NCBI GenBank assembly: GCA_028280285.1
Contig: JANQMA010000030.1
Span: 1 to 40,976 of the forward strand
DNA from: Candidatus Omnitrophota bacterium
GTDB lineage: Bacteria > Omnitrophota > Gorgyraeia > Zapsychrales > Zapsychraceae
Reading direction: 5' to 3'
Length of the DNA stretch: 40,976 bases
Shown here: positions 4,231 to 29,138 of the stretch, in pieces
Numbering within the stretch: the stretch's first letter is position 1
How the letters are laid out: the number at the start of each line of letters is the position of its first letter
Program-made: the position numbers and the translations under genes
Notes under the pieces: generated by a model
Seen by the model: the letters and a program-made list of their open reading frames with translations, nothing else
The model's database searches: none
What the model was told of the DNA's origin: nothing

Positions 4231-5008
4231 CAATTACTTGGCCGATAATGCACAAACACTCGTCAGCAATGTTTCAAGTATTCTTACAGCAGTGACCACG
4301 ATTAGCTCCCTTGTTGGAACGGCGAGTGATACGTCATCAGCCAGCACGTTGTTTGGAAAGATTGCGGAAGTTAATGATACCGTTTCAGGACTAGATGTGT
4401 CAGATGTGGGAACACTTGTAACTAAAGTAACAGCTATTGAAACGCTTCTTGGTGGTACGGATGATACTGTTGATAGTTCGACGATATTTGGTGATCTGAA
4501 TCAAGTTGAGGCATTGCTTGGTCTGGCAGCTAATGCGACGACAGATGATACTGTATTCGGGCGATTAAATGATATTCAAGAAAATGCTTCAAGTGGAAAG
4601 TCCAGTGCGGATGCAGCGCTCGGTATTGTACAAAATATTAGAGCTGATCTTGGTGTCGACGGACAAACACCAGATTTATATGATAAAGTAACCTCGCTTG
4701 AATCAGCGTTGCAAAATTTAGATACGGTTGTTGCACAATTAGCGACTAATCAAGTCAGTGCGGATGTATTGGCGCGACAAATGCTTGATATCTTAACAGA
4801 GCTTCTTAATCAAAGTGCAGATTTAGCTGGTCTGGAAGAATTGGAAGTTGAAGAAACAGACGCTGAAATAGAAGGCGAGATGGATATGGAAGAAGTCAAT
4901 GACCGCTTGTCTGAGATCGAGGCTAAATTAGAAGCAATCGCTGAGATGCTTGATAAGGATGGTATAGGTGAGGTTGTAATCAAGACATACTTTGAAAGCG
5001 CGCAATAA
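2..5008 (+). CDS. Giant tandem-repeat protein, 5'-partial (frame open from nt 2; >1655 aa in window). About 108 copies of a 13-aa unit A-G-[VI]-N-W-[SDN]-[DN]-[IL]-[GT]-[EV]-[ML]-[ST]-[EA], then a ~250-aa Ser/Thr-rich, acidic coiled-coil C-terminal domain.
   Basis: The ORF track gives one 1655-aa ORF. Reading the same frame back to nt 2 continues the repeat ('VNWDNIGELSTAGVNWSDLTVMTEA'), so the gene begins upstream of the window. The 39-nt periodicity is visible in the DNA. The last ~250 aa are non-repetitive and end in an acidic 'EELEVEETDAEIEGEMDMEE...IEAKLEAIAEML' coiled-coil-like tail. The stop TAA at 5006-5008 overlaps the next ATG. Confidence 0.8.
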   Translation, partial: VNWDNIGELSTAGVNWSDLTVMTEAGINWSDITVMSEAGVNWDNISELSTVGINWSNIGEMSTSGINWDNIGELSAAGVNWNDVRVMTETGINWDNVGEMSAAGINWSDIGEMSAAGINWDDITVMSEAGVNWDNIGELSASGINWADINVMSEAGINWSDIGELTAAGVNWSDLTVMTEAGINWSDIGVMSAAGVNWDDLTVMTEAGVNWDNIGELSTSAINWSDIGVMSAAGVNWDNIGELSTSGVNWDNIGEMSASGINWDNIGELSSSGVNWNDIAVMTAAGVNWDNIGELSAAGINWSDINVLSEAGINWSDIGVMSAAGVNWDDIGELSTAGVNWSDLTVMTEAGINWSDIGVMSAAGVNWDDIGELSTAGVNWSDLTVMTEAGINWSDLTVMSEAGVNWDDFSYMTTAGVNWADFAVMTTASVNWNDLQVLTESGVNWSNFGEMTASGVNWSDLTVMTEAGINWSDLGVMSATGVNWDDIQVMTEAGVNWSNFAELSTAGVNWDGINDLTSASVNWDDLSEMTQAGINWSDFGVLSTSGINWSDLQVMTEAGVNWDNIGDMSTAGVNWSDLTVMTEAGINWSDLGVMSATGINWSDLTVMTEAGVNWDNFSELTAAGVNWSDLTVMTEAGVNWDDIGSMTTAGVNWDSIGDMTTSGVNWDDLTVMTEAGVNWSNFGDMTTAGVNWDSIGELSTAGVNWDGFNELTTAGVNWDDFGVMTTAGINWDNVGDMTTAGVNWDEITVMSEAGVNWANFGDLSTAGINWNGISELADAGVNWSNFAQLSTAGVNWAGINEMTQAGINWDNMTDLSTAGINWEGFGDLSTAGVNWSDLRVMSEAGVNWLDMGSMTTAGVNWSDLTIMSEAGVNWAGFEALSTGGVNWDNIGDLSTAGVNWSDLKIMSEAGVNWSGFEALSTGGVNWDNIGELSTAGVNWADLTVMSEAGVNWDGVGALASSGVNWDNIGEMSVAGINWNGVGALASAGVNWDGVGALASAGVNWDDIASLSAAGVNWNDLTVLSEAGVNWSDLTVMSEAGVNWNDMTIMTEAGINWNDLQVMSTTGVNWDDLQNFSTIGINWSNIQDLSAAGVNWDGINELTTSGINWSDISVLSEAGINWSNIGDLSTAGVNWSDINVMTEAGINWDDITSMTTTGINWNDIGAMTTAGVNWDSIQSMSTAGVNWSDITVMTESNINWDSVGSMTVSGINWSNIGDLSAAGVNWSDIGVMSEAGVNWSDIGTMSSQGINWDGIQDLSVAGVNWSGIQDLSLSGVNWDDIAELSLAGVDWSNIASMANAGVNWDGIADLAAASVNWSNVADLAAAGVNWTNISNLASAGVNWDGVAEMTSSGVNWDDVAEMSTAGVNWADIAFMSGTGINWEDMSTSSTAGINWSDLAAMSNNGINWDGVNYLADNAQTLVSNVSSILTAVTTISSLVGTASDTSSASTLFGKIAEVNDTVSGLDVSDVGTLVTKVTAIETLLGGTDDTVDSSTIFGDLNQVEALLGLAANATTDDTVFGRLNDIQENASSGKSSADAALGIVQNIRADLGVDGQTPDLYDKVTSLESALQNLDTVVAQLATNQVSADVLARQMLDILTELLNQSADLAGLEELEVEETDAEIEGEMDMEEVNDRLSEIEAKLEAIAEMLDKDGIGEVVIKTYFESAQ

Positions 5009-6342
5009 TGAAAGCATCGAATTATTATCGTCGGTTTAGATTTTTATTATTTATTGGTTTATTGTTCTTTTTCATAAGTGTTGCAAAAAATTCTTCAGCG
5101 GATCTTTATATCAATATTCTTGCTGTTAACGGAGCCGACGTAGCTCAGGATAAAGAGATCAATCATGTTCTTCCTAAAGAGCTCGCTAAAGAGGATGTGG
5201 TTGATACAGACGGACTTGAGTTGAAATATGATGTTGACGCCGGTGCTTATAGTGTTACTGGTGTTGTCAAACTGGGCGCTAAAGACACAAAGACCTATAA
5301 AGTCCGTGTCCGGGACGTCTGGAAAGTTGATGAAAATGAAATTGTACAGATTCAAGAAGAGATTGATAAAAATCTTGCCCGTATTAAGGATACGGAATTT
5401 TTCCCGACCGGTCAGATCAAAAGAGAAAGTCTTATTGAACGCTTGGATTTTATTGTTAAACAGCAGGAAAAGTTTGCGGATAATATTGAAAAGCGTATTG
5501 GCCGTTACCGTATTTATGAGAAAGAATTAAGCGAGATTCGCACCAATGCTCTTTCTGTTAAATATTGGAAGTCAAGGCCGCCGACACCGGATGAAGCCGA
5601 TATTTTTACCTATATCATTGAGCTGGAAAACCCCAATGATGAAGAAGAAGCAATATTATCCCCGAAGCATTATGTGCCAAAAGAAGTTAAACCTGAACAT
5701 TTTGTTGAGCTTCAAGGGTTTGAAGTCAAGTATGATGCTTTAAAGGGAAGATCCTATCTTCAAAAAGAAGATAAGCTGAAAGCACAGCAGAAAAAACGTT
5801 ATGAAATCGGCATTATTGATATTTGGAAAATCCGCGATTACGAAATTGAAGAATTGCGGGATCGTACGGCAAATGCGTTTGAGCTTTTAAGAGGATCAGA
5901 ATTTCTCGACAGTGCCGAGTATTTGGCCCAAGTCATTACCAAAAATCTTGATTATTTGGTTGAGTCGCAAAAAATCGACCGTTCGATTAATGATCATATT
6001 GCGGCTTACCGTAAAAATAAAATAATTTATGACAAAACTGTTGAAGATGTTGAAGCGCTCGAACGTTTATTAGAAGCATTACGCGAGGATCTGGAACGCA
6101 GTAAAGTTAAAAAAGTTCTTGAGAAAATTTCAGAACAGGCCAATCTGGCATCGATTGTTAAAACGATCTTTAAAAAGCCTGATATTAACACAGCATGGAA
6201 AATTATTCTGGGAGTTGTTATATTCGTTGGAATTTACACCTTGATTCACTTTACTATATGGGGCATACGTTCGAAAAACGCGAAGATCGAAGAGACACAG
6301 AAACCTGCCTCTTCGGATACGCCAGAAGAAGACAAGGAGTAA
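5008..6342 (+). CDS. Membrane-anchored coiled-coil protein. It has an N-terminal signal or anchor, two ~55-aa internally duplicated modules, a long charged coiled coil and a C-terminal transmembrane helix. Function unknown; translationally coupled to the repeat protein.
   Basis: The N-terminus 'MKASNYYRRFRFLLFIGLLFFFISVAKNSSA' is hydrophobic. The C-terminus has 'AWKIILGVVIFVGIYTLIHFTIWGI'. There is an internal duplication ('LKYDVDAGAYSV...YKVRVRDVWKVDENEIVQIQEEI' versus 'VKYDALKGRSYL...YEIGIIDIWKIRDYEIEELRDR'). A TAATG overlap links it to the upstream CDS. Confidence 0.6.
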   Translation: MKASNYYRRFRFLLFIGLLFFFISVAKNSSADLYINILAVNGADVAQDKEINHVLPKELAKEDVVDTDGLELKYDVDAGAYSVTGVVKLGAKDTKTYKVRVRDVWKVDENEIVQIQEEIDKNLARIKDTEFFPTGQIKRESLIERLDFIVKQQEKFADNIEKRIGRYRIYEKELSEIRTNALSVKYWKSRPPTPDEADIFTYIIELENPNDEEEAILSPKHYVPKEVKPEHFVELQGFEVKYDALKGRSYLQKEDKLKAQQKKRYEIGIIDIWKIRDYEIEELRDRTANAFELLRGSEFLDSAEYLAQVITKNLDYLVESQKIDRSINDHIAAYRKNKIIYDKTVEDVEALERLLEALREDLERSKVKKVLEKISEQANLASIVKTIFKKPDINTAWKIILGVVIFVGIYTLIHFTIWGIRSKNAKIEETQKPASSDTPEEDKE

Positions 6343-6346
6343 GTCA

Positions 6347-7912
6347 TTGACTGAATTAAGATACACAGAAGTCGGCAAGGTAAAAAGTATCCGGGGATGT
6401 ATTGTCTTTGTCATCGGACTTAATAACTGTATTAATGGTCAGTTAGTTGAGTTTGGTTTCGGGACATTCGGGACTATTCTTGGGTTTACGGAAAAGGATG
6501 CGCAGGTGCTTATCGTTAAAGAAAGCACGCCTATTAAAACGGGTGATGAGGTGCGTGCATCGCTGGAACCGTTTAATGTTCCTGTCGGTGAGAATTTTAT
6601 TGGACGGATTGTTAATCCGCTGTGCGATCCGTTTGACGGGCTTGGCCCGATAAAGCCTGATGAGCATTATCCTATTTTTCCTTTAGCGCCGGGTATCCTG
6701 GATAGAAAAGTTTTGCATAAGACGCTTGAAACAGGGACAAAAGTTGTTGATGCGATGATTCCGGTCGGCATGGGACAGCGTGAACTTGTTTTGGGTAATA
6801 AGATGACGGGCAAGACCACGCTTATTACAGATTGTGTTATTAATCAAAAAGGCAAAGATGTCATTTGTATTTATTGTGCGATTGGAAAGGCGCGCTCTCA
6901 GTTGGCGCGTGTTGTACAGCTCTTTCAGGATCATGATGCGTTTGACCATACGATTATTGTAGCCGCTCCGTCTTCATCACCGCCAGGCCAGCAGTATTTA
7001 GCACCGTATGTTGCCTGTTCAATCGGTGAGTATTTTATGCACCGGGGTAAGGACGTGTTTATCGGCTTTGATGATTTCACCAAACATGCCTGGTGTTATC
7101 GGGAAATATCGCTTTTACTTGGTCGTCCACCGGGGCGCGACTCTTATCCGGGGGATATTTTTTATCTGCATTCAAAGATGATTGAGCGGGCATGCCATTA
7201 TGATGATGCTCATGGCGGAGGATCAATGACGTTTTTACCGCTGGTTGAAATTCTTGAGGGCGACTTAACAGCATTCGTCCCGTCAAACCTGGTTTCGATG
7301 ACCGATGGTCAGATTCTTCTTGATGCGGCGATGTTTGGGCAGGGACAAAAGCCGGCGCTAGATCTTGGTCTTTCTGTTTCGCGTGTTGGAACCAAGGTGC
7401 AATGGCCGATTATCAAGGACTTGGCCGCCCCAATGCGTTTGGAATATTTGCAGATTCGCGAGCTGCAAAAATCATCTAAGTTGCGCTCAGGTCCACAGTC
7501 CGAAGAACTTATGGAACGTTTAAAGAGTGGGGAGGTTTTAACAGCCCTTATGTGCCAGGGGAAAAATAAACCGGTGCCGCTGGAAGCCTTGGCGCTTATG
7601 CTTTATGCCTTCCGGGAAAAATATATTATCGATTTAAAACCGCAACAGTTAGAAAAATTTCAAGATGAGATTTTTGATTATGCTAAAGAAAAGAACCCTG
7701 AATTTTTAACGAAATTAAGGGAAGAAAAAAAGCTCAGTGAGGAAATTGAAAAGGTCATGCAGGACATTTTACAAACCTATGTGCGTGAACGGTGTCCGGC
7801 AGGCGCAACGGGAACTGAGGAGGAAGAAGAAGGCGACGATATCGTATCAAACATTGGCCGTGATGTTCTCGACGAGGCAGCTTCCAAAGGCCTTGAAAAA
7901 AGCAAAAGTTAA
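6347..7912 (+). CDS. atpA: F-type ATPase alpha-subunit homologue (non-catalytic nucleotide-binding subunit). TTG start.
   Basis: It aligns along its length to F1 alpha: 'GQRELVLGNKMTGKTT' (P-loop), 'LLGRPPGRDSYPGDIFYLHSKMIERA' (cf. '[26 protein letters not shown]'), 'PALDLGLSVSRVG' (arginine-finger region) and 'AFVPSNLVSMTDGQI'. An RBS 'aaggag' sits 8 nt upstream of TTG 6347. Confidence 0.85.
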   Translation: MTELRYTEVGKVKSIRGCIVFVIGLNNCINGQLVEFGFGTFGTILGFTEKDAQVLIVKESTPIKTGDEVRASLEPFNVPVGENFIGRIVNPLCDPFDGLGPIKPDEHYPIFPLAPGILDRKVLHKTLETGTKVVDAMIPVGMGQRELVLGNKMTGKTTLITDCVINQKGKDVICIYCAIGKARSQLARVVQLFQDHDAFDHTIIVAAPSSSPPGQQYLAPYVACSIGEYFMHRGKDVFIGFDDFTKHAWCYREISLLLGRPPGRDSYPGDIFYLHSKMIERACHYDDAHGGGSMTFLPLVEILEGDLTAFVPSNLVSMTDGQILLDAAMFGQGQKPALDLGLSVSRVGTKVQWPIIKDLAAPMRLEYLQIRELQKSSKLRSGPQSEELMERLKSGEVLTALMCQGKNKPVPLEALALMLYAFREKYIIDLKPQQLEKFQDEIFDYAKEKNPEFLTKLREEKKLSEEIEKVMQDILQTYVRERCPAGATGTEEEEEGDDIVSNIGRDVLDEAASKGLEKSKS

Positions 7913-7918
7913 TAATCA

Positions 7919-8191
7919 ATGGGACGCATTATTAAATTTAAATGTATTATTTTAAGTCCCCATTCATTGATCTATGAAAATGAAGTTGAGAGCGTTTTTT
8001 TGACAGGTGATCAGGGAGAGTACGAGCTTCTTGCCTATCATTATCCATTGGTTGGCGTTTTAAGAAGAGGTGATGTGATTATTGATTGGAATCATAAGGT
8101 GTCAATCAACAGTGGGGTGGTTAAGTTTTTTGCCAATGAATGCTTGATTATGATTGAGGAAGACGTCAGGAAAAAAGTAAAAATTAAGTAA
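7919..8191 (+). CDS. atpC: F1 epsilon-subunit-like protein with the N-terminal beta-sandwich only (90 aa). It lacks the C-terminal inhibitory helical hairpin.
   Basis: 'LTGDQGEYELLAYHYPLVGVLRRGDVII' aligns with epsilon '[28 protein letters not shown]'. The protein ends about 45 aa earlier than canonical epsilon. Confidence 0.6.
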   Translation: MGRIIKFKCIILSPHSLIYENEVESVFLTGDQGEYELLAYHYPLVGVLRRGDVIIDWNHKVSINSGVVKFFANECLIMIEEDVRKKVKIK

Positions 8192-8200
8192 GGAATAAAC

Positions 8201-8422
8201 ATGGTACCAGAATATTTTTTAATAATTGGAATGATGCTCGTTGTTGTGGCAGGCCCGTCTATTGTGATCGGCATGTTAGGGCATGCGGTTATTAAAGCAC
8301 TTGCGCGTAATCCATCGGCGGCAAGTAAAATATTTTTAGGTATGATGGTGATGCTTGTTTTTGTTATTGCACTTTCACTGGTGGCTATGTTGATTATTTT
8401 CCAATTGTTTGGGACAAAATAG
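8201..8422 (+). CDS. Fo c-subunit-like two-helix hairpin protein (73 aa) that lacks the conserved ion-binding Asp/Glu in the second helix.
   Basis: It has two hydrophobic helices joined by an 'ALARNPSAAS' polar loop (cf. the c-subunit 'ARQP' loop). TM1 is Gly/Ala-rich ('VVAGPSIVIGMLG'). TM2, 'IFLGMMVMLVFVIALSLVAMLIIF', has no acidic residue. Confidence 0.5.
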   Translation: MVPEYFLIIGMMLVVVAGPSIVIGMLGHAVIKALARNPSAASKIFLGMMVMLVFVIALSLVAMLIIFQLFGTK

Positions 8423-8656
8423 ATGAGAGTATTTGATCAGTGGTTAGAAGCCTTTATTATAGTTTGTATTATGTCGGTTATTATTGCCATTCCATGTTTT
8501 TTGACTGTTTTGGTGGGGCGAAAAATGATCAACAGGATCGGGCAGTATCCGACACAAGCACCAACAATACAAATGAGTATTTGGCTTCAATTAGTAGCTA
8601 TTGAGGCTGTTGGGTTTTTGCTGTTAATTATGTTTTATAATTTTTTCTCTGATTAA
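8423..8656 (+). CDS. atpE: Fo c-subunit-like hairpin protein (77 aa) with a Glu in TM2. Probably the ion-binding c paralogue.
   Basis: The ATG immediately follows the previous TAG. It has two helices with an 'RIGQYPTQAP' loop. TM2, 'LQLVAIEAVGFLLLIMF', places Glu where c subunits carry the carboxylate (cf. 'GLVDAIPMIAVG'). Confidence 0.5.
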   Translation: MRVFDQWLEAFIIVCIMSVIIAIPCFLTVLVGRKMINRIGQYPTQAPTIQMSIWLQLVAIEAVGFLLLIMFYNFFSD

Positions 8657-8677
8657 TGAAAAAGGAGTAATTTAATT

Positions 8678-9424
8678 ATGGATGTGACATTAATCATTAG
8701 TTTTGTCATTTTTATGATAGTCTTTGTGGGGCTTGCCGGTTTTATCCTGCACAGAGTTTTTGTGGCCAATACCGACGGGGCGATCCAGCGTTTGGATAAT
8801 GAATACGCTGATGCGACAAAAAAGCAGGCCGAACTGAATAGAAAATTAAGGCAGTCTGATGAAGAGCTGGCCAAGCGCCGCGCAGAAGCCCGGGAGTTAA
8901 CGGAAAAGCTGCGTAGTGAAACCGAAGAAGAGACGAAGACTGAGCGGGATAATATTATTCAGAAAGCCCGTGCCGAAGGTGAAGAAATTATTGCCAAAGC
9001 GAAGGGGGCAACGGAAACTTTACGCAAAGAATTAGAAAAAGAAATGGATGCGAAGTTTATTCAATACAGCATGCGTATTTTAAATACCATTCTTGCTGAT
9101 CATGCGAAGGGGGCGTTTAATCAGGTTTTAGTTGATGAGTATCTGACCAAATTAAAAGATGCAGACCTTTCCAAAATTGGCCCTGATGTTAAAGATGTTG
9201 AGGTGACGGCAGCCGGGGAGATAGCTGATGATGTTAAGAGTAAAATAAGCGCAACATTAAAAGAGAAAGTTGGCCGTGATTTTAATGTAACCGTTAAACA
9301 AGATAAAGAACTTGGTGGCGGTATTGCGCTTAAATTCGGGAGTATGGCGCTTGATGGTAGTTTAAATGGTCTTATCCGCCAAGAAGGCCTTAAAATGCAG
9401 CAGGAAGTGGATGACCGAAACTAA
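8678..9424 (+). CDS. Fused b-delta peripheral-stalk subunit: N-terminal transmembrane helix, charged coiled coil, and a C-terminal OSCP/delta domain.
   Basis: The N-terminus has a TM helix 'LIISFVIFMIVFVGLAGFIL' followed by a Lys/Glu/Arg-rich helix. The C-terminus 'SKISATLKEKVGRDFNVTVKQDKELGGGIALKFGSMALDGSLNGLIRQ' matches the delta C-terminus '[49 protein letters not shown]'. An RBS 'aaaggag' lies upstream. Confidence 0.7.
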   Translation: MDVTLIISFVIFMIVFVGLAGFILHRVFVANTDGAIQRLDNEYADATKKQAELNRKLRQSDEELAKRRAEARELTEKLRSETEEETKTERDNIIQKARAEGEEIIAKAKGATETLRKELEKEMDAKFIQYSMRILNTILADHAKGAFNQVLVDEYLTKLKDADLSKIGPDVKDVEVTAAGEIADDVKSKISATLKEKVGRDFNVTVKQDKELGGGIALKFGSMALDGSLNGLIRQEGLKMQQEVDDRN

Positions 9425-9432
9425 GATTTTTT

Positions 9433-10284
9433 ATGGGAAAAGCAAACCGTAAAAAAATTGAATTGATTGAGACCGGTGAAATGGTGGGGCTTATTCAAAC
9501 CCTTAAGGATATTGCCGACAGTAAATATTATTCGATGCTCGGGGAAAAAGAGAAGTTAAGACGGTTTGGTGAGATGTTTGTTGAGTTTTTCCGTTTAATC
9601 AGTTTAACGGGATGCGAGCATCCGCTTATTAAAAATGACAATAAAAAGGTCGGGATTGTTGTTGCGACGGGAGAGGGAAGTTTTTTAGGAAAATTTAATG
9701 GCTCTATTTTAAGCCTTGCCGAGCGTCAACAGAAAGAATATGAAGAATATGAATACATTGCGGTCGGAGCGCGTGGCGCTGAACGTTTGGAACAATATAC
9801 GCCTGATTTAAAGGTTTTTTCCGGTTTTGAAGAAATCGGTATCTATGAGATGGCCATTCAGTTGAAAGATTATCTCATTGAAAAAATTATGGATGGTCAT
9901 TATGGCAAAATTATTGTTGTCTATTCCTGGCCGAAAACCCAGGACATTCAAAGACCACGGATTGTTAATTTATTGCCATGTATTGATTTGGCATCTAAGC
10001 AAGCGGAGTATGTCGAGGAGTTTGAAAAAGTCATTGAAGAGTCTGATTCGCGTGATACTGTCGGTATGTTGGCGCAGATTTGGGTTACATCCAGATTGTA
10101 TGAAATATTTTTAGATCTTCTTATTGCCGCGGCAGCGGCTCAGGCCTCATTTTTGGATGATAGTGTTGATAAGATGAAAAAGGAAGAAGTGAAAGCACGG
10201 TTTGCCTACCGTAAAGCCAAGAAGGGTGATATTGATAAAAGTTTGCGGGAAACATTTTCTGCACGATTGATTGCTAATGGATAA
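9433..10284 (+). CDS. atpG: F1 gamma-subunit-like protein (283 aa).
   Basis: Its length and its N- and C-terminal helices fit gamma. 'KKVGIVVATGEGSFLGKFNGSILS' aligns with gamma '[24 protein letters not shown]', and 'YIAVGARGAERL' with 'LAMIGSKGVSFF'. It is positioned between b-delta and beta. Confidence 0.6.
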   Translation: MGKANRKKIELIETGEMVGLIQTLKDIADSKYYSMLGEKEKLRRFGEMFVEFFRLISLTGCEHPLIKNDNKKVGIVVATGEGSFLGKFNGSILSLAERQQKEYEEYEYIAVGARGAERLEQYTPDLKVFSGFEEIGIYEMAIQLKDYLIEKIMDGHYGKIIVVYSWPKTQDIQRPRIVNLLPCIDLASKQAEYVEEFEKVIEESDSRDTVGMLAQIWVTSRLYEIFLDLLIAAAAAQASFLDDSVDKMKKEEVKARFAYRKAKKGDIDKSLRETFSARLIANG

Positions 10285-10291
10285 TTCTTAA

Positions 10292-11947
<1,656 letters not shown>

Positions 11948-11949
11948 AA

Positions 11950-14151: not shown

Positions 14152-14169
14152 ATCCTTTCGTAATTCATT

Positions 14170-15378: not shown

Positions 15379-15379
15379 G

Positions 15380-16174
15380 ATGAATTTAGCTAAAGTTGTT
15401 TTCTTTCTTTTATTTCTTATCTTCGGTTCTTCGTATGTTTACGGCGAAACTTTTAAGAGCGAACATTTTACAATTACGGCCTCCCCGACGATCAGTGCTT
15501 CGTGGAATAAATCTGTTTTACGCAAAGCGGAGTATCACTATGATCGCATATCCAGGCGGCTTGGATTTAGCAAATACTCCAATTATTGGACATGGGAAGA
15601 CCGTGTGAATATCAAACTCTATGCTGATCAAAAAGAATTTATGGCGAAAACCAATCAGCCGGCCTGGGCGATAGGGGGTGCTCAATACGGGCATCGTTTT
15701 TCCCAGGGGCGTTCGATTATCAGTTTCAAACAAGAGCAGGGTTTTCTTAACGGCATCTTACCGCATGAAATTAGCCATTTAATTCTGCGTGATTTTATTG
15801 GGTATGATAAGACCATTCCACTTTGGTTTGATGAAGGGGTGGCGCAGCTGTTTGAAGAAGGTAAGCCACAAAAGGCCCACAAGGCTATGAAAGACTGGGT
15901 GAGGGTCAATAAACCGATCCCCTTTAATCAATTATTTAAATATGATGTGCGTTATGAAACAAATCCTTTAAGGGTGAGTATTTATTATGCCCAGTGCTTA
16001 ACCATTGTGGATTATATGATTAAGATTCACGGGAGCAATAAATTTGCCAAACTATGCCGGGCGATGAAGGATGGCAAGCCATTTGATCAAGCGCTCCTGA
16101 GCACCTACAAACTGGTATTTAATTCTGTAGAAGATTTTGAAAAAAAATGGTTAAGTTATATGAAAACGTATTAA
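15380..16174 (+). CDS. Secreted HExxH zinc metallopeptidase-like protein (~264 aa) with a signal peptide.
   Basis: The start was moved to ATG 15380, 1 nt after the gspF stop; the track ORF 15332 overlaps gspF. The N-terminus 'MNLAKVVFFLLFLIFGSSYVYGET' looks like a signal peptide. An 'ILPHEISHLI' HExxH motif is present, with a downstream 'FDEGVAQL' possibly supplying the third ligand. Confidence 0.5.
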   Translation: MNLAKVVFFLLFLIFGSSYVYGETFKSEHFTITASPTISASWNKSVLRKAEYHYDRISRRLGFSKYSNYWTWEDRVNIKLYADQKEFMAKTNQPAWAIGGAQYGHRFSQGRSIISFKQEQGFLNGILPHEISHLILRDFIGYDKTIPLWFDEGVAQLFEEGKPQKAHKAMKDWVRVNKPIPFNQLFKYDVRYETNPLRVSIYYAQCLTIVDYMIKIHGSNKFAKLCRAMKDGKPFDQALLSTYKLVFNSVEDFEKKWLSYMKTY

Positions 16175-16226
16175 AGTGTAGTATATTGGATTATAGTATG
16201 AGTAAGGAAAAATTGGAGGAAGACAT

Positions 16227-16655
16227 ATGAAATTGATCCAGAAATTGCGTGCTAAAAGAGCCTTTACACTGGTTGAAATTTTACTGGTGGTTATCATAAT
16301 CGTAGCCTTATCTTCGATGGTCGTGCCACGCTTGGTCGGACGAGGTGAGCAGGCCAAGGTCTCGGTGGCTAAGTCGGATATCGATGCTAATTTGGCAACA
16401 GCGCTAAAATTATATGAGCTTGATAACGGCAATTTCCCTACAACCAATCAAGGTCTTAAGGCCCTGCGCGTTAAACCTACCGTAAGTCCTGTTCCAAACA
16501 ACTGGAATGGCCCTTATGTGGAAAAAGATTTGGTTGATCCGTGGGGTAATCCTTATGTCTACACTTCTCCTGGCAGCAATAATCCTGATTACGACTTGCA
16601 TTCCGAAGGGGCCGACCCGGATTCAGACGAAGATGATGTTAAAAATTGGGATTAA
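16227..16655 (+). CDS. gspG: Major pseudopilin GspG (type II secretion / type IV pilin-like).
   Basis: Prepilin leader and N-methylation region 'KRAFTLVEILLVVIIIVAL' with Glu at +5. The GspG core 'AKSDIDANLATALKLYELDNGNFPTTNQGLKAL' and 'NNWNGPYVEKDLVDPWGNPYVY' are present. Confidence 0.85.
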   Translation: MKLIQKLRAKRAFTLVEILLVVIIIVALSSMVVPRLVGRGEQAKVSVAKSDIDANLATALKLYELDNGNFPTTNQGLKALRVKPTVSPVPNNWNGPYVEKDLVDPWGNPYVYTSPGSNNPDYDLHSEGADPDSDEDDVKNWD

Positions 16656-16710
16656 CCCAAGACACCTAATTCATATCATTACTGTCGATTTAACTATGAG
16701 TTAAATCAGA

Positions 16711-17130
16711 ATGTCTAAAAAAAATTCCAAACACAATTCATCGGGCTTTACCCTCATTGAACTTCTTTTAACCATTTCCATCGTCTCGGTTAGTATTGTC
16801 GCGATCTTTCAGTCGCTGCTTATCTCTCTTGACCGCATACGTTATTTAACGCACCGCATGCATGCCACCACAATATTGGATAACCGGTTGACGGAAATTG
16901 AAAACACATTACGTGTTTATAAATCGCTTCCTTTTGAATTAAATCATACAGAAACGGCTGATGTTGGCGGACAAATTGTTCAATTCAAACAGTCGATGAA
17001 TCTGAGGGCCTTAGAGGAATATGTGGATATTTTTCAACTTGATTTAACATTAACGTGGGAACAAAATGACCAGACAAAGTCATTATCCCGCTCAACCTAT
17101 ATTTCCGATTTTGATTATTATCATCAATAA
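16711..17130 (+). CDS. Minor pseudopilin of GspI/H size (139 aa).
   Basis: Prepilin N-terminus 'SSGFTLIELLLTISIVSVSIVAIF' with G-1, F+1 and E+5. Small periplasmic domain. Confidence 0.6.
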   Translation: MSKKNSKHNSSGFTLIELLLTISIVSVSIVAIFQSLLISLDRIRYLTHRMHATTILDNRLTEIENTLRVYKSLPFELNHTETADVGGQIVQFKQSMNLRALEEYVDIFQLDLTLTWEQNDQTKSLSRSTYISDFDYYHQ

Positions 17131-17349
17131 TAATTAAAAAATGAGAAGTAAAAATTAAAAAAGAAAATTGAGAATTGAAAAAAAATAAGAATGAAAAAGG
17201 TATTTAGTAATTGGTAATTAGTAGTTAGCGGCTTGGGAAATCAATTACAAATTACTAACTACCAAATACCATTTGTAATTTTACCTTTTTAATTTGTTTT
17301 ATTTTTTCATTTTCTTTTTTATTTTTGCTTTTTTAATTTTCAATTAATT
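17131..17349. repeat. 219-bp extremely AT-rich imperfect inverted repeat filling the gap between two minor pseudopilin genes. Arms are ~95 nt (purine-rich left, pyrimidine-rich right), with a 22-nt spacer and terminal 'taattaa'/'ttaatta'. MITE-like element or long intercistronic RNA hairpin.
   Basis: The left arm 'aaaattaaaaaagaaaattgagaattgaaaaaaaataagaatgaaaaaggtatttagtaattggtaattagtagttag' is ~70% complementary to the right arm 'ctaactaccaaataccatttgtaattttacctttttaatttgttttattttttcattttcttttttatttttgcttttttaatttt'. Confidence 0.55.
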
Positions 17350-17952
17350 ATGTTTTCACGTATTCACAATAAATATGCTATGACCTTCATTGAGGTTCTT
17401 ATTGTCACAGCGCTTGTATCTGTTGTGAGCCTTGCCTTGTATCATGGTTTTTCTAACGGGCTTAAGGTATGGAAACGCAGTCAACAGGTTGTGGTAGAAG
17501 AGAACATCATTATTTTCTTTGAAAAGATAACCAAAGATCTTCAAAATGCATATAAATTTTCGACGATTACATTTCAAGGGAATAGAAGTAAATTTTCTTT
17601 TCCTGTTATTTTACCAGTTAAAATAAGCAGCACTTTAAGTAACAAAGAATCGGTTTATGCACAGCAATTGGCACGGGTGGAGTATTATTATGACTATAAT
17701 AAAGAAACTATTTTCCGCCGGGAAGGTAATTATGGACAGGCATTGAAGGATCAATACTTTGAGCCCCGCAAAGTGGTTGAAGGTGTCGACGGGCTCATGT
17801 TTAAATATTATTATATGACGGATAATGATGAAATCTATAGCGAAGATATATTAGAAACAATTCCTTCGAAAATTGCGGTGACAATTGAATTCATTGATAA
17901 CGGCTACCGCCGGGCCATGACGAAATATATTCCGGTTCCTATTGGGAGTTAG
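17350..17952 (+). CDS. Minor pseudopilin of GspJ size (200 aa).
   Basis: Prepilin-like N-terminus 'KYAMTFIEVLIVTALVSVVSLALY' with A-1, M+1 and E+5. Its length matches GspJ. Confidence 0.5.
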   Translation: MFSRIHNKYAMTFIEVLIVTALVSVVSLALYHGFSNGLKVWKRSQQVVVEENIIIFFEKITKDLQNAYKFSTITFQGNRSKFSFPVILPVKISSTLSNKESVYAQQLARVEYYYDYNKETIFRREGNYGQALKDQYFEPRKVVEGVDGLMFKYYYMTDNDEIYSEDILETIPSKIAVTIEFIDNGYRRAMTKYIPVPIGS

Positions 17953-17973
17953 TATTTAGGGAATAAGGGTCAT

Positions 17974-19008
17974 ATGCTAAGGATAATGAATAAGTACAAT
18001 CAAAAAGGATCAATACTGATTTTTTCTTTATGGATTGTTGCGCTGTTAACCGTATTTGTCGTTCAGATCGGCATGCGTATCCGTCAACGTGTAACGGTAT
18101 TATCCCGCATAGAAACAACAGCGAGTTTAAGGCATGTGGCGGCATCCGGCGTTAAAAAGGCCTTATCCACGCTCAAACTAGATTTTGAAAAAAATAATCA
18201 AGTTTATACAGCGTATGGAAAACATTTCCGGCATAATAATGACAGTAAATTTTCAAACATTGTATTACCGACAGGTACGGCGCGTGTTTTTTACAAGTCA
18301 TCTGAAGGGCTTTCCGGAGGGTCTGCTATGCGATTTGGATTTGTGGATGAAGAACGTAAGCTCAATATCAATACCGCCGAGCATAGTGAAATTCAAAGGT
18401 TGATCGAAAGTGTGACGGAGGCGGATGTTGATAAGGCGACAGATATTGCTAATGCCATTGTTAGTTGGCGTGAAATTGGGGATGTGGAATTAATCGGTTT
18501 TTATAGCGATGACTATTATGCTCAGCTTCCCTACCCGTATGAACCACGCAAGATACCTTTTGAGCTGATTGATGAACTCAGACTTTTAAGAGGGGTTACA
18601 GAGGACATTTTTCAGGCATTGTTTCCTTATGTAACGGTTTATGGAAACGGCAAGGTCAATATCAACACCGTTTCTGTGCCAGTCCTCAGGGCGCTGGGAT
18701 TGGACGATGCTGTGATCGATAAATTAGTTGCGGTCCGGCAGGGCCCGGATGGTATGGAAAGTACCGTGGATGACTATATCTTTCATAAAACTTTTGATGT
18801 GGCCAGCGAGGTTGCTGCGTTTATTGATCTCGATGAATCAGAAATCACGCAAATCGACTCTTTGAATAGATCTCAAAAAATTGGAACCAATTCATTTTTT
18901 TACACCATTGAGAGTCATGCCACAATACCGAACCAAAACGACACTTTAAGCGCTATTTGTACGTATAATTTGAGGGAAAACCGCATTGAATATTGGCGTG
19001 AAAAATAA
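17974..19008 (+). CDS. gspK: GspK-like large minor pseudopilin (344 aa).
   Basis: N-terminus 'QKGSILIFSLWIVALLTVFVVQIG'. Two helix-hairpin-helix-like segments ('KLNINTAEHSEIQRLIESV' and 'KVNINTVSVPVLRALGLDDAVIDKLVAVR') as in GspK. Size and position after the minor pseudopilins fit. Confidence 0.55.
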   Translation: MLRIMNKYNQKGSILIFSLWIVALLTVFVVQIGMRIRQRVTVLSRIETTASLRHVAASGVKKALSTLKLDFEKNNQVYTAYGKHFRHNNDSKFSNIVLPTGTARVFYKSSEGLSGGSAMRFGFVDEERKLNINTAEHSEIQRLIESVTEADVDKATDIANAIVSWREIGDVELIGFYSDDYYAQLPYPYEPRKIPFELIDELRLLRGVTEDIFQALFPYVTVYGNGKVNINTVSVPVLRALGLDDAVIDKLVAVRQGPDGMESTVDDYIFHKTFDVASEVAAFIDLDESEITQIDSLNRSQKIGTNSFFYTIESHATIPNQNDTLSAICTYNLRENRIEYWREK

Positions 19009-19085
19009 TGATTTTATGTTGATTGGTTTTTATTATTTAATATATAATAACTATCAATATAAAGAGTTTAGAAAAGGAATCTGTA

Positions 19086-20540
19086 ATGCTTAAAAAGAGC
19101 AAGGATTTTGTCGGGCTTACTTTAACTGATGATTATCTCAAAGTGGCCCATATTAAGGGTACAAAAAGTGTTCCTAAAGTTGCTAATATCGGCCTTCATG
19201 ATATAAAAGGCTTACCTCAACAAGGCTTGATTAGCGCGGTTAAAAAAGCCCTTAAAGGGGTTAATGTCAAGAAAGCCAATCTTTTATTAGTGGTTCCACC
19301 AAGTGGTGTCTCCACTAAGAATATTGAAATCCCATCCACTAATTCTGAAGAAATCCGTTCGATTGTGAATTTGCAAGCCGGGCGCCACACACCTTTTTCA
19401 AGAGAAGAGATCCAGGTTGGATACGTCAACATGGGTGTTTCTCAGGGTAATTTCACAAAAGTGTTGCTCGTGATTGCGGATAAGAAAGTCGTTAAGGAAA
19501 AATTGGCGATTTTTGAAAAAGCGGGTGTGAAAATTACAGATGTGTGTTTTGCCTCAGAAGGTGTGGCCAAGCTTTATGGGGGGGATGCAGGTGTTTCTGG
19601 CGTGATCGATATTGATGCCTCGTCCACAGAATTTGTGATCGTTAAAAATGGCATAACGATCTCCAGCCGTAATATCCCAATTGGCCGGAGTCAGCTCGAA
19701 AGCGAAGGGGCCTCAGCCCAGGAAAAACTGGTGGCTGAATTAACCAAGACCATTGAGTCTTATCAGAGTGAAGATATTGATGCCGCCCCACAGGCTTATT
19801 ATATTGCTGGTGATGATCAGCAAGCGCAGGCCTTACAACAAGCCCTTTCCCAAGCGGCTGGTTGGACGGTGAATGTTTCCTCTTATGCCGATCGGGTTAA
19901 ATTGTCTGGCGGTAACCTTAAAAAAATTGCCACGACTTATGCGGCGGCATCCTTTTTAGATGTTATAGCGACGGCGTCTAATGCCTCTTTTAATGAGGTC
20001 AGCTTAATGCCGGAAGAGGTGATTTATCAAGCGAGCATGGCTAATCAAGGACGGGAAGTGTTGAAGGCAGCTATGCTGAGTTTTATATTGCTTGTGCTTA
20101 TCGCAGGGACCTATGGGGCTAAGATTTATTTTAAGGGTTCTTTCTTAAGCCAGATCAAAAAAGATTATAGTGAAAGCAAAGCAGAAGTGATGATGCTCGA
20201 AGAAAAATCAGCACGGACGCGTATATTGCGTGATTTTTTTGAAACACGTATGGCTACACTTGATACGCTGAGTGAATTATACGACAGTATTCCCGAGGAA
20301 GTCTATTTAACAAATATTAAACTGGAAGAAACCGGTGATGTCAGTATTCAGGGAATTTCCGATGTTGCTTCCATTGTATTTAATTTGGGGACATCCTTGA
20401 AAGAATCTGATTTATTCAAAAATGTTGAAATTAAATCAACATCGGCACGCAAGGACCGAGGCAAAGATGTATCTGCGTTTGAGATTACTCTTAAGCTCAA
20501 ATCGGCATTAACCGCCTCAGCCCAGGACGAGGAGGAATAG
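19086..20540 (+). CDS. GspL-like or fused PilM-PilN-like assembly protein: cytoplasmic actin-like domain, a single TM, and a periplasmic domain.
   Basis: 484 aa. The N-terminal ~320 aa are soluble, followed by a TM 'AMLSFILLVLIAGTYGAKIYF' and a periplasmic C-terminus. It occupies the canonical L position. Confidence 0.5.
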   Translation: MLKKSKDFVGLTLTDDYLKVAHIKGTKSVPKVANIGLHDIKGLPQQGLISAVKKALKGVNVKKANLLLVVPPSGVSTKNIEIPSTNSEEIRSIVNLQAGRHTPFSREEIQVGYVNMGVSQGNFTKVLLVIADKKVVKEKLAIFEKAGVKITDVCFASEGVAKLYGGDAGVSGVIDIDASSTEFVIVKNGITISSRNIPIGRSQLESEGASAQEKLVAELTKTIESYQSEDIDAAPQAYYIAGDDQQAQALQQALSQAAGWTVNVSSYADRVKLSGGNLKKIATTYAAASFLDVIATASNASFNEVSLMPEEVIYQASMANQGREVLKAAMLSFILLVLIAGTYGAKIYFKGSFLSQIKKDYSESKAEVMMLEEKSARTRILRDFFETRMATLDTLSELYDSIPEEVYLTNIKLEETGDVSIQGISDVASIVFNLGTSLKESDLFKNVEIKSTSARKDRGKDVSAFEITLKLKSALTASAQDEEE

Positions 20541-20542
20541 AG

Positions 20543-21097
20543 TTGGCACTTAAATTTTTAGAAAAATTTTCTGATAAAGAAAGAAAGATATTTTATATTA
20601 CCTTAGCCTTTGTCCTGCTGGCCATGTTTGACCGGTTGGTTTTGGGCCCCTTTAGTGCCAAAACCGCTGAGCTGGACGGCCAAATTGAAGAGCAGAAAAT
20701 AAGCGTTATGCAAGATATGCAGGTATTAGCGTACAAAGGTAAAATTAATGCGGAAAGCGCGCAATTTGATGATTATCTTAGTGATGAGGTTCAAGATGAT
20801 AATATCGTTAACGCTGATTTTTTGAGTATGATTGAGCGTATTGCCGATTATTCGGAAGTCACTTTAATCAAAAGTAATCCCACCAAAACAAATAAGACAG
20901 ACCGTTTTACTGAATATTACGCCAGTGTTGATTGCAGTGGTTCATTTGAAAAGGTTGTTACCTTTATGCATAATATCAATTCAGCGGATGAACTGCTTAA
21001 GATCGTACAGTTTAATATAGTGCCCAAGCGTGGCACGTCCGATAATGTGAATATCTCTTTGACAGTCGTCAAATTGCTGATGACGCCCAACGCTTAA
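20543..21097 (+). CDS. GspM/PilO-like bitopic protein. TTG start.
   Basis: 184 aa. N-terminal TM 'IFYITLAFVLLAMF', then a coiled coil and a periplasmic domain. RBS 'ggaggaa' upstream. Follows the L-like gene at a 2-nt gap. Confidence 0.4.
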   Translation: MALKFLEKFSDKERKIFYITLAFVLLAMFDRLVLGPFSAKTAELDGQIEEQKISVMQDMQVLAYKGKINAESAQFDDYLSDEVQDDNIVNADFLSMIERIADYSEVTLIKSNPTKTNKTDRFTEYYASVDCSGSFEKVVTFMHNINSADELLKIVQFNIVPKRGTSDNVNISLTVVKLLMTPNA

Positions 21098-21106
21098 AAC
21101 TTTCTG

Positions 21107-22018
21107 TTGCATTCTTCAAGCCTCATGAAAATACGGTTAACCCTCATTATTTCTTTTTTTTTCCTCATTGGTGTTGTATTTCCTGAAGCCGTATCGGCTA
21201 ATCCTGTTAAAAAACTTTTTGAAGAGGGTATGGCCTATTATGCCCAGGAGAAATACGATGCTTCTATCAAAAAGTTTGAAAAGCTACTTGAGATATATCC
21301 TGAATTTGCTCCGGCCTATCATTATTTAGGCCTTGCCCATAAAAATAAAGGCACGGTGGAAGATGAGGTGCTTTATCTGTTTAATATGGCGATTAAAATC
21401 GACCCTAACTACGCGGAGTCACATGAACAGTTAAGTAAGGCTTATTATGAGCTGGCGGAATTTGACAAGGCGATAGAACACGGCGAGAAAGCTGTTAAAC
21501 TGAAACCGGATTTTTTAACAGCCCGCCTGGCGCTTGCCTGGATATATCTTTTAGGGAAGCAAGAGCAGGATCCGGCGATCACACATTTCAGCTATGTCGT
21601 TAAGCGTTATGATATTCCTTATGCCGTTTTTGGCCTTGGATTGGCGTACTTTATGAATGATGAGCGGGCGCAGGTGATGGACATTATTACGCAACTTAAA
21701 GGTAAGTCAGAAGATAAGCTTGCCGCCAATCTTGAAAATATGCTGCGGCAGGGTTATTTTGATCCTGATAATAATAATTTCATCACGCCGCTTGTTGCCC
21801 CGAAAAAGAGAGATCCAAGTGTCTCTGTTAAGGACATTCAAAACATGTCAGGTGCTGAGTTGCGTGTCCGTTTAAGAGGAACCCCCCAGGAAGAGGCCCC
21901 GCGGCGCAGAAGTTCGGATACCGCCCAAAACCAGTTTAATCCTCCCCAACAACAGCCGTTAACAGGCGAACAGCGTTTAAGGCAATTGCAAAATAATAGC
22001 TCTAACTATCCTTACTGA
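21107..22018 (+). CDS. Secreted tetratricopeptide-repeat (TPR) protein with a Gln/Pro/Arg-rich C-terminal tail.
   Basis: Signal peptide 'MKIRLTLIISFFFLIGVVFPEAVSA'. TPR-like helices ('AYYAQEKYDASIKKFEKLLEIYPEFAPAYHYLGLAH', 'AIKIDPNYAESHEQLSKAYYELAEFDKAIEHGEKAVKLKPDF'). Last gene of the co-oriented block. Confidence 0.6.
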   Translation: MHSSSLMKIRLTLIISFFFLIGVVFPEAVSANPVKKLFEEGMAYYAQEKYDASIKKFEKLLEIYPEFAPAYHYLGLAHKNKGTVEDEVLYLFNMAIKIDPNYAESHEQLSKAYYELAEFDKAIEHGEKAVKLKPDFLTARLALAWIYLLGKQEQDPAITHFSYVVKRYDIPYAVFGLGLAYFMNDERAQVMDIITQLKGKSEDKLAANLENMLRQGYFDPDNNNFITPLVAPKKRDPSVSVKDIQNMSGAELRVRLRGTPQEEAPRRRSSDTAQNQFNPPQQQPLTGEQRLRQLQNNSSNYPY

Positions 22019-25305: not shown

Positions 25306-25443
25306 GGCCCCTATTTTATCACAATAATAACCCATTGATAGAGAGAATGTTACAATTTGAATGCTAAAATGACCAAAAATCAGCCCAATCGGGAGGTGGA
25401 GAAAGGTCATTGCGCTGTTTTGTGGCCGTTGTATAATAAAACT

Positions 25444-28633: not shown

Positions 28634-28638
28634 GGGAA

Positions 28639-29043: not shown

Positions 29044-29138
29044 ATTCTTAAAATTCCCTAAATTGCTTGTTTCCTTATGGTTTCTAATATAGGATACTAT
29101 AATATTAATATATAATAACTCTATTAAAGTTATTTTTT

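Follow-up and report, generated by a model that had tools for sequence, protein, structure and literature searches.

The closest described systems to the locus analyzed here come from the phylum Omnitrophota itself. Seymour et al. (2023, Nat Microbiol; PMC10066038) report clusters of a non-respiratory, "symbiotic" F-type ATPase (sF-ATP) located by type IVa pilus (T4aP) clusters in all Omnitrophota classes, the two being within 10 kb of each other on 57 of 66 contigs; the α-subunits of these loci fall outside the respiratory clade, and giant open reading frames (ORFs) occur in the same genomes. We analyzed a stretch of 40,976 nucleotides from a Candidatus Omnitrophota bacterium (assembly GCA_028280285.1, contig JANQMA010000030.1; this whole stretch is referred to as the window) that fits the published definition of an sF-ATPase/T4aP locus, namely a non-respiratory F-type α/β pair no more than 10 kb from type IV filament genes in an Omnitrophota genome. 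A first reading made from the letters of the window (hereafter the sequence-only reading) had regarded the combination of an F1-like ATPase with a type II secretion system (T2SS)-like operon as undescribed, a claim that the 2023 report overturns; we found no later literature taking the Omnitrophota ATPase/filament system further. The searched text and supplements of PMC10066038 do not describe the absence of an a-subunit, the pair of c-subunit paralogs, the fused b-δ stalk protein, the 444-residue membrane protein that we call p444, the constant location of the giant gene, the STT3-like and trypsin-like neighbors, or the secretin module that we set out below. Nor did the papers searched mention the invariance of the catalytic residues checked, the presence of one or more c-ring carboxylates at every locus, the missing inhibitory domain of ε, or the lineages in which p444 and the giant protein are fused. 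We favor, with moderate confidence, the hypothesis that the cluster would encode a single envelope machine, in which an F-type ATPase lacking an a-subunit would use ATP to power a filament/adhesin system linked to a secretin, as its motor.

Outside this phylum, the gliding motor of Mycoplasma mobile (MMOB1660/1670; Gli349, Gli521) resembles the window in that non-synthase α/β paralogs occur with very large surface proteins. Only α and β are recognizable by sequence in M. mobile, whereas the window adds γ, ε, c and b/δ; furthermore, the Omnitrophota cluster includes a secretin-type filament system, and mycoplasmas have no outer membrane. The window falls short of the cut-offs of the mycoplasma Type 2/3 models (MMOB1660, 371 against 600 bits; MMOB1670, 411 against 850; MSC_0619, 283 against 520; MSC_0618, 395 against 570), and its α and β score higher with the genuine atpA and atpD models. 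The analogy with the gliding motor was itself proposed by Seymour et al. (PMC10066038).

The filament genes of the window resemble those of a T2SS (Gsp) or an MSHA-type pilus, with a GspE carrying an MshE-type N-domain, GspF, GspG, GspI/J/K-like pseudopilins, and GspL- and GspM-like proteins, and the likeness extends in sister loci to a secretin, a GspA/ExeA/MshM-like AAA+ ATPase and a TPR protein. The differences from a T2SS are that a PilM-PilN fusion stands in place of GspL, that GspC is absent, that no secretin, prepilin peptidase or GspH is found in the window, and that the F-type ATPase, giant protein and p444 genes are inserted between the secretin block and gspE. Compared with F1Fo ATP synthases and N-ATPases, homologs of α, β, γ, ε, c and b/δ are present and the catalytic and ring-carboxylate residues are intact; however, the a-subunit is missing, there are two c paralogs and ε consists of its N-domain only. 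The N-ATPase operon has the order atpDCQRBEFAG and includes an a-subunit, whereas the order in the window is α-ε-c1-c2-b/δ-γ-β, which also differs from that of canonical F1Fo operons. Membership of the N-ATPases was rejected on the "exception" cut-offs of their models (α, 466 against 750.5 bits; β, 452 against 752; b, 59 against 225). F1-like ATPases or rotary engines serve secretion or adhesin machines in two further systems, FliI-FliH-FliJ and, in the type IX secretion system (T9SS), GldLM with the giant adhesin SprB. FliI forms a homohexamer and has no ring in the membrane, and the proton-motive force powers GldLM; for the window, FliI-FliH-FliJ and T9SS GldLM/SprB are functional analogies only, with no sequence membership.

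Genes of the window were assigned with Pfam and NCBIfam profile models, the bit scores being read against family cut-offs. The giant gene is cut by the start of the window, which spans the whole of its 40,976-base contig, and sequence farther upstream lies outside our view. The cluster and its immediate neighbors are as follows.

1-5008, + strand: giant repeat-protein gene, 3' part (no stop codon before position 41)
5008-6342, + strand: p444, bitopic membrane protein of 444 aa, family-less
6347-7912, + strand: F-type ATPase α-like subunit (Pfam ATP-synt_ab, 228 bits)
7919-8191, + strand: ε, N-domain only, 90 aa (Pfam ATP-synt_DE_N, residues 7-80)
8201-8422, + strand: c1, c-subunit paralog, hairpin of 73 aa (Pfam ATP-synt_C, 24.8 bits)
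8423-8656, + strand: c2, c-subunit paralog, hairpin of 77 aa (no Pfam match; assigned by hhalign)
8678-9424, + strand: b-δ fusion, peripheral stalk (Pfam OSCP, 39.8 bits; ATP-synt_B weak)
9433-10284, + strand: γ, divergent, central shaft (Pfam ATP-synt, 78.7 bits, cut-off 39.9)
10310-11947, + strand: β, catalytic (TIGR01039 atpD, 530 bits, cut-off 463)
11950-14151, + strand: GspE/PilB-type assembly ATPase with MshEN and PilZ domains (T2SSE 428, MshEN 54.6, PilZ 45 bits)
14170-15378, + strand: GspF/PilC platform protein (Pfam T2SSF, 208 bits)
about 15380-16174, + strand: MA-clan zinc metallopeptidase, exported (Pfam Peptidase_MA_2, 46 bits)
16227-16655, + strand: GspG, major pseudopilin (TIGR01710, 136.8 bits, equivalog cut-off 88.85)
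16711-17130, + strand: GspI-like minor pseudopilin (N_methyl, 29 bits; TIGR01707, 39.6 bits)
17131-17349, no strand: hairpin-forming AT-rich spacer of 219 nt between the GspI-like and GspJ-like genes
17350-17952, + strand: GspJ-like minor pseudopilin (N_methyl 20.5 and T2SSJ 17.5 bits, both under the Pfam cut-offs)
17974-19008, + strand: GspK-like minor pseudopilin (Pfam T2SSK_1st, 47 bits)
19086-20540, + strand: PilM-PilN fusion (Pfam PilM_2 54 bits, PilN 50.5 bits)
20543-21097, + strand: PilO/GspM-like bitopic protein (Pfam PilO, 23 bits)
21107-22018, + strand: exported TPR protein, last gene of the operon (Pfam TPR families)
22002-24587, - strand: STT3-like oligosaccharyltransferase (Pfam STT3, 70.9 bits)
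24607-25488, - strand: trypsin-like protease (Pfam Trypsin_2, 89.5 bits)

The sequence-only reading had described a tight run of genes on one strand, with the atpD-like gene ending 2 nt before gspE, and proposed that the ATPase and T2SS-like genes form one unit; our measurements bear this out. Every ORF between 41 and 22018 lies on the + strand, and within the compact, co-directional cluster (5008-22018) most gaps are between -1 and 25 nt, the full series from the giant gene to the TPR gene being -1, 4, 6, 9, 0, 21, 8, 25, 2, 18, ~1, 52, 55, 219, 21, 77, 2 and 9 nt. The stop codon of β is 2 nt from the start of gspE, and no terminator-like site was found at this junction, where the same reading had named a strong terminator, together with transcript data showing independent transcription, as evidence that would refute it. 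Rfam and tRNA scans of the window gave no match.

The linkage was followed in relatives from both ends of the cluster. First, a genome scan seeded on a b-δ alignment returned 63 Omnitrophota loci, in which gene order was read by BLAST of the window proteins against the locus ORFs. As far as each locus reaches, all 63 share the order giant gene, p444, α, ε, c1, c2, b-δ, γ, β, GspE, GspF, continuing with the peptidase (where present), GspG, two pseudopilins, GspK and PilM-PilN, at b-δ identities to the window of 33-51%. The sole gene inserted within the cluster in these 63 loci is a 1149-aa ORF at the β/gspE junction of L032 (4984-8433); ORFs of this kind (~1150 aa; L032, L141 and L142) have no Pfam match and belong to one lineage. 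Second, an independent metagenome scan seeded on PilM-PilN returned 80 loci, of which 27 reach at least 1.5 kb 5' of gspE, and β lies directly before gspE (within 400 nt) in 24 of these. The other three have one extra ORF before gspE: in L133 a 200-aa TPR ORF separates β from gspE; L141, which is on the same contig as L032, shows β before the ~1150-aa ORF; and L142 is cut inside that ORF. In a more distant locus, L079, the ATPase genes run ε, b-δ, c, α, γ, β and are still flanked by a p444 homolog and by GspE, GspF, GspG and GspK. The linkage of the ATPase with the T2SS-like genes is thus near-invariable over more than 100 loci.

The ATPase is an F-type module, as the sequence-only reading had recognized, but it is not F1 alone: that reading had missed the two c-like genes. 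The catalytic features of an α3β3 head (P-loops, catalytic Glu, Arg finger) and a γ shaft are present as in F1Fo enzymes. In β, the Walker A motif (GGAGCGKT), the catalytic Glu motif, the Walker B Asp and the conserved positions of DDxTDPA show no variation among 57 homologs; in α, the same is true of the conserved Walker A residues and of the Arg-finger Arg (within LSVSRVG) among 51. The γ-subunit is divergent, scoring 53.6 bits with TIGR01146, far under the cut-off of 194. No C-terminal helical inhibitory domain is present in ε (82-113 aa across the family), which retains the N-domain, the ring-binding part of canonical enzymes. The b-δ protein has an N-terminal transmembrane (TM) helix (5-23), a long charged helix and an OSCP-like C-terminal domain, and the NCBIfam model that it fits best is that of the N-ATPase b subunit (TIGR03321, at 59 bits against a cut-off of 225). 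F1Fo enzymes have a full-length ε and separate b and δ; here ε is 90 aa long and b and δ are fused. The acidic, low-complexity N-terminal extension of β is ~85 aa long in the window (10310-10560) and 16-87 aa in the family. The true β start could alternatively be an internal ATG near codon 75; no database record with the exact β protein sequence was found, and the gene was probably called there with a different start. The C-terminal tail of α is also acidic (7790-7912).

Both small hairpin proteins belong to the c-subunit family. By hhalign, c1 matches canonical c with a probability of 96%, and c2 matches c1 with 98.5% and canonical c with 87%, its Glu61 aligning with the canonical Glu. The position of the ring carboxylate is occupied by Glu in 59 of 63 c1 homologs, the window being one of the four exceptions (Ile56), and in 50 of 59 c2 homologs, including the window; no locus was found that lacks a ring carboxylate in both c1 and c2. 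A c-ring with a membrane carboxylate (c2 Glu61), as in F1Fo enzymes, is thus present. In the window and its close relatives L004, L015 and L021 the c1 carboxylate is replaced by I, V or S; L004 and L021 have a third c paralog bearing Glu, and the window and L015 depend on c2 alone. Together, these patterns show purifying selection on the ATPase active site and the c-ring carboxylate.

The component that we do not find is the a-subunit. A hidden Markov model (HMM) built from five Pfam-verified canonical a-subunits recovered four held-out controls at 104-350 bits, and its best E-value was 0.8 across the window and ~150 related loci (2.06 Mb, ~20 kb per genome). In the canonical operons included in the survey (L069-L078), the a and c genes are adjacent. 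The module is therefore an F1 with a partial Fo, comprising a catalytic head, a full rotor and a membrane-anchored stalk, with no a-subunit in the cluster. Two sister loci have a pair of α paralogs that are 50-60% identical to each other (L164, 15707-18635; L163, 5312-6739 and 12141-13457), which hints that the head in these lineages may be built of α1, α2 and β.

The filament module contains the T2SS core of GspE, GspF and GspG. GspE scores almost equally with the PilB (571 bits) and GspE (564 bits) models, under the cut-offs of both, and the best NCBIfam match of GspF is GspF itself (344 bits, cut-off 424). The major subunit GspG has the leader KRA|FTLVE; leaders in the family take the form G|FTL(V/I/T)E in 71 members and A|FTL(V/I)E in 17. 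The GspI-like protein (leader SSG|FTLIE) stands below the TIGR01707 gspI cut-off of 44.35, the GspJ-like protein (leader KYA|MTFIE) has no NCBIfam match, and the GspK-like protein (leader QKG|SILIF; NF037980 GspK, 82.7 bits, cut-off 130) has no Glu5, the absence of which is usual in GspK; no GspH was found in the window. PilM-PilN has an actin-like cytoplasmic domain, a TM segment at 325-343 and a periplasmic domain, the overall layout being that of GspL, and the PilO/GspM-like protein reaches 32.4 bits with NF040576 GspM (cut-off 60); a search for PilO homologs returned only eight close relatives. The label E-F-G-(I/H)-J-K-L-M, canonical for a T2SS, that the sequence-only reading gave to this run is a reasonable one (GspG is above its cut-off, and four other proteins score best with the GspF, I, K and M models), although that reading overlooked the metallopeptidase gene between gspF and gspG. 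The filament is labeled T4aP in PMC10066038, whereas in the window GspG, I, K and M are the best matches and the features of a type IVa pilus, namely a PilA-type major pilin, a retraction ATPase PilT and PilP/PilQ, are lacking, in that the major subunit is GspG-type, there is a single T2SSE-family ATPase, and neither PilP nor PilQ is found.

Two c-di-GMP-binding folds, an N-terminal MshEN and a C-terminal PilZ, are carried by GspE, the PilZ fusion being found in 42 of 83 family members, the window included. Control of the filament engine by cyclic di-GMP (c-di-GMP) is likely, judging from these domains. A PAS-GGDEF-EAL protein is encoded farther downstream, at 29139-31106.

No prepilin peptidase (Peptidase_A24) matched in the 41-kb window, as the sequence-only reading had stated, nor in the annotated contexts of related loci; since the pseudopilins bear class III leaders, a prepilin peptidase must be encoded elsewhere. 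The metallopeptidase, an accessory component (HEISH motif; signal/TM segment at residues 19-37 of the ORF read from 15332), was considered as a substitute and ruled out, because it acts outside the cytoplasm, being exported by a signal peptide, whereas prepilin leaders are cleaved at the cytoplasmic face; it is also undetected in ~10 related loci, and it has no relative in the PDB. The terminal TPR protein has a signal/TM segment at 11-29 and follows PilO in ~50 metagenome loci; as a candidate secretin pilotin it was rejected, its PDB sequence matches being to generic TPR proteins only.

The spacer between the GspI-like and GspJ-like genes, also missed by the sequence-only reading, folds into one long hairpin, its two paired arms being A-rich and U-rich and enclosing a core that contains GC (minimum free energy -51.6 kcal/mol against -30.6 ± 3.6 for shuffled sequences; z = -5.84). 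The hairpin is specific to this genome and its core is unique in the window; among the 63 loci of the genome scan, a gap longer than 300 nt occurs here in L042 alone. The spacer may represent a palindromic insertion, or it may serve as an attenuator or terminator inside the cluster.

At the 5' end of the cluster, the giant gene comprises ~100 copies of a 39-nt (13-aa) unit, GVNWxDIGxMTxA, with tandem periods of 39, 78 and 117, followed by a Ser/Thr-rich and coiled-coil tail. The part of the protein encoded in the window matches only a repeat family in Pfam and has no predicted TM segment. GC skew is extreme (0.4) over the first 4 kb and coincides with the repeats (1-4200). A giant-gene homolog lies 5' of p444 in every related locus that extends that far, reaching 5610 aa in one relative and an unusually short 868 aa in L060.

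The TAA stop of the giant gene overlaps the ATG of p444 (TAATG). The p444 protein consists of an N-terminal signal/anchor helix, two repeats of a β-sandwich with a three-helix bundle, a long helix, a C-terminal TM helix and a short tail, and a profile search of 1.84 billion representatives placed 962 members in its family. Several of these members form the C-terminal portion of large proteins (1167-3365 aa) that bear a signal peptide. The L164 fusion aligns colinearly with the separate pair in the window, residues 1397-1653 of the giant protein corresponding to residues 1158-1396 of the fusion and residues 55-432 of p444 to residues 1422-1850. Because the giant protein of some lineages itself ends in p444, we consider it to be its tether, most likely a membrane-proximal anchor in the inner membrane.

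Proteins with FGE-sulfatase domains are encoded, one or two at a time, directly 5' of the giant gene wherever this region is visible (L060, 521-3716; L164, 5554-8583; L167, 253-1755). As GldJ/GldK/PorK-like ring proteins they have no NCBIfam support, and they also fall below the EgtB cut-offs. In loci ordered like the window the 5' side of the giant gene is mostly hidden, since either the giant ORF takes up the entire 10-kb flank or the contig stops.

The contexts of two fusion proteins from sister lineages show where a secretin lies. In L164, the order is PilZ, MerR, an AAA_22 ATPase, a 234-aa protein, a secretin, a TPR protein, two FGE-sulfatase-domain proteins and a giant::p444 fusion, continuing with ε, c, b-δ, two α paralogs, γ, β, GspE, GspF and GspG; its β, GspE and α are 55%, 46% and 46% identical to those of the window. 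In L163, an AAA_22 protein, a 241-aa protein and a secretin sit between two α-like genes. The secretins of L164 and L163 score 264 and 228 bits with the GspD model and 255 and 250 bits with the PilQ model, respectively. The AAA+ protein of L164 matches the XrtA/PEP-CTERM system-associated ATPase model TIGR03015 (166 bits), a family that we take to be related to GspA/ExeA. The TPR protein next to the L164 secretin was rejected as a pilotin (Tgl 36 bits, PilW 28 bits, far under the cut-offs). L060, which has the gene order of the window, carries TPR, FGE and FGE genes directly 5' of its giant homolog, and this block is orthologous to that of L164 (TPR 39% identical, E = 3e-20; FGE 34-36%). Because L060 shares the block that adjoins the L164 secretin, we infer that in loci like the window, and thus in this genome, a secretin module probably lies 5' of the giant gene, beyond the contig end.

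Taking these features together, we propose that the giant repeat protein would be exported by the Sec pathway and tethered to the inner membrane by p444, whose two modules would lie in the periplasm, held by the membrane anchor at its C-terminus. With no ion channel, the ATPase would have no normal route to ATP synthesis or ion pumping, so that it would most likely run as an ATP-hydrolyzing motor. Torque or conformational work would then be passed to an envelope complex, the recipient being either the giant protein with p444 or the filament platform, and would serve attachment, surface movement or secretion on host cells. The filament engine, composed of GspE, F, G, I, J and K, PilM-PilN and PilO, would need a prepilin peptidase from elsewhere. 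A more specific version of the hypothesis, in which a true rotary motor with a c1/c2 ring and b-δ would be wired mechanically to a secretin-containing type IV filament machine through p444, PilM-PilN/PilO or GspF and would move, extrude or tension a giant adhesin held at the inner membrane, is possible, but we advance it tentatively and regard it as rather unlikely.

Several observations weigh against the motor hypothesis. The coupling of the ATPase to the filament/adhesin system is deduced from synteny only, the secretin is seen in sister lineages only and at no locus with the exact order of the window, and no informative structural neighbor was found for p444. Furthermore, a conserved c-ring carboxylate is the expectation for an ion-coupled ring, and β and α exceed the NCBI cut-offs for genuine atpD (530 against 463 bits) and atpA (TIGR00962, 498 against 484 bits). 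These last two points lead to the alternative that survives best, namely that the module is a genuine ion-translocating F-type ATPase or ATP synthase, with its a-subunit encoded elsewhere or replaced by an unrecognized membrane protein, and that its adjacency to the filament genes reflects co-regulation or local energy supply. The carboxylate is kept at the canonical ring position, which argues for a ring that still comes into contact with an ion or a charged partner, so that the bioenergetic explanation stays in play. In addition, a 2026 preprint counts α and β in 125 of 176 complete Omnitrophota genomes and γ in only 30 at a strict threshold, and by these counts the cluster enzyme may be the sole F-type enzyme in many Omnitrophota genomes. 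Nevertheless, we consider this explanation unlikely. The a-subunit went undetected over the loci searched with an HMM that finds its held-out controls, the gene order is near-invariable at 33-50% identity, which is beyond the needs of co-regulation, ε has no regulatory domain, and γ is far under its family cut-off. Seymour et al. (PMC10066038) also set a "respiratory" α clade apart, and in the portion of their KEGG orthology (KO) table covered here genome 221, a single incomplete genome, has K02111 and K02112 and no K02108.

A second alternative is that the proteins form a cytoplasmic F1 complex which, like FliI-FliH-FliJ, would activate or load a gate exporting either the giant protein or T2SS substrates, with no rotation in the membrane. 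F1-like ATPases that serve secretion systems are an established precedent, the ATPase is tightly linked to secretion genes, and α and β also match the FliI/SctN models at 160-190 bits. However, the complex here is a heterohexamer with its center filled by γ, and the c-ring, the ε N-domain and the membrane-anchored b-δ point to a rotor embedded in the membrane, which makes such a complex improbable.

The sequence-only reading itself had placed the F1-like ATPase in the position of gspC and gspD and raised the possibility of a T2SS-like piston without a secretin, perhaps in an envelope with no outer-membrane conduit. It was correct that none of the ORFs of the 41-kb window matches a secretin; moreover, in no related locus did the stretch from p444 to the convergent STT3 gene contain a secretin, GspC or prepilin peptidase, and no GspC was recognized in the window or in related loci. 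Yet the window is cut inside the giant gene, in the clusters of the sister lineages a GspD/PilQ-type secretin is accompanied by a TPR protein and a GspA-like ATPase, L060 shares the adjoining block, and the pseudopilin leaders are of the ordinary class III type. The published record for Omnitrophota includes both RcpA and GspD secretins, those of the RcpA type being reported by Seymour et al. (2023; PMC10066038). Based on these findings, neither the assignment of the ATPase to the gspC/gspD position nor an envelope without an outer-membrane conduit is supported, and a secretin-less piston seems to us very improbable. A gspC-gspD pair just upstream of the repeat gene, which the same reading had named as an outcome that would count against it, is found in part, in that L164 has the secretin there and no gspC; the secretin probably has this position in the present genome too. 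Finally, chance adjacency of the ATPase and filament genes can be set aside as having almost no likelihood, given that over 100 loci, found with seeds at one end or the other, repeat the same order across lineages only 33-55% identical, and that variants with shuffled ATPase genes are still linked.

In the PilM-PilN-seeded metagenome loci the cluster always closes with PilO and the TPR protein, and in relatives the operon has no secretin after it. A convergent STT3-like gene comes next in 37 of these metagenome loci; the trypsin-like gene follows STT3 in 26 of these 37, and the same arrangement is seen in L080 and L081. This conserved position suggests that the two neighbors possibly glycosylate or process the pseudopilins or the giant protein. 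Farther downstream (25925-31106), the window encodes a GH94-like glycoside phosphorylase, a second GspG-like prepilin (28639-29043) and the PAS-GGDEF-EAL protein mentioned above. The close relative L081 repeats the order in which the window has a response regulator, GH94 and a small pilin-sized ORF. The last ORF (40157-40975) has a signal peptide and no Pfam match, and it runs off the end of the window.

Homologs of b-δ and p444 come from metagenomes, and their named sources are Candidatus Omnitrophota/Omnitrophica. The closest named relatives (P0003 and P0149, from GCA_047638895.1) were deposited as "Lysobacterales bacterium". We doubt this label because members of the same 90% cluster are labeled Candidatus Omnitrophota, and the taxonomy of GCA_047638895.1 is probably wrong.

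The association of the ATPase with the filament genes is already published, and the cluster is spread across an uncultured phylum of ultra-small, host-dependent bacteria. What is unusual is that genes for a catalytically intact F-type rotor without an ion channel always accompany those for a T2SS-like filament engine and a giant surface protein, joined in sister loci by a secretin gene. The details added here, namely the absence of the a-subunit over ~2 Mb, the complementary retention of the carboxylate in c1 and c2, the fusion of p444 with the giant protein, the position of the secretin and the STT3/trypsin neighbors, turn a co-location statistic into testable hypotheses in which rotary ATP hydrolysis would drive envelope mechanics in attachment or predation. 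They also call for caution in annotation, as genes named "F0F1 ATP synthase" may be miscounted as bioenergetic capacity. If the motor is indeed wired into the filament machine, the cluster would represent an uncharacterized class of hybrid nanomachine, and it would add a further use of the F-type rotor besides ATP synthesis, ion pumping and mycoplasma gliding.

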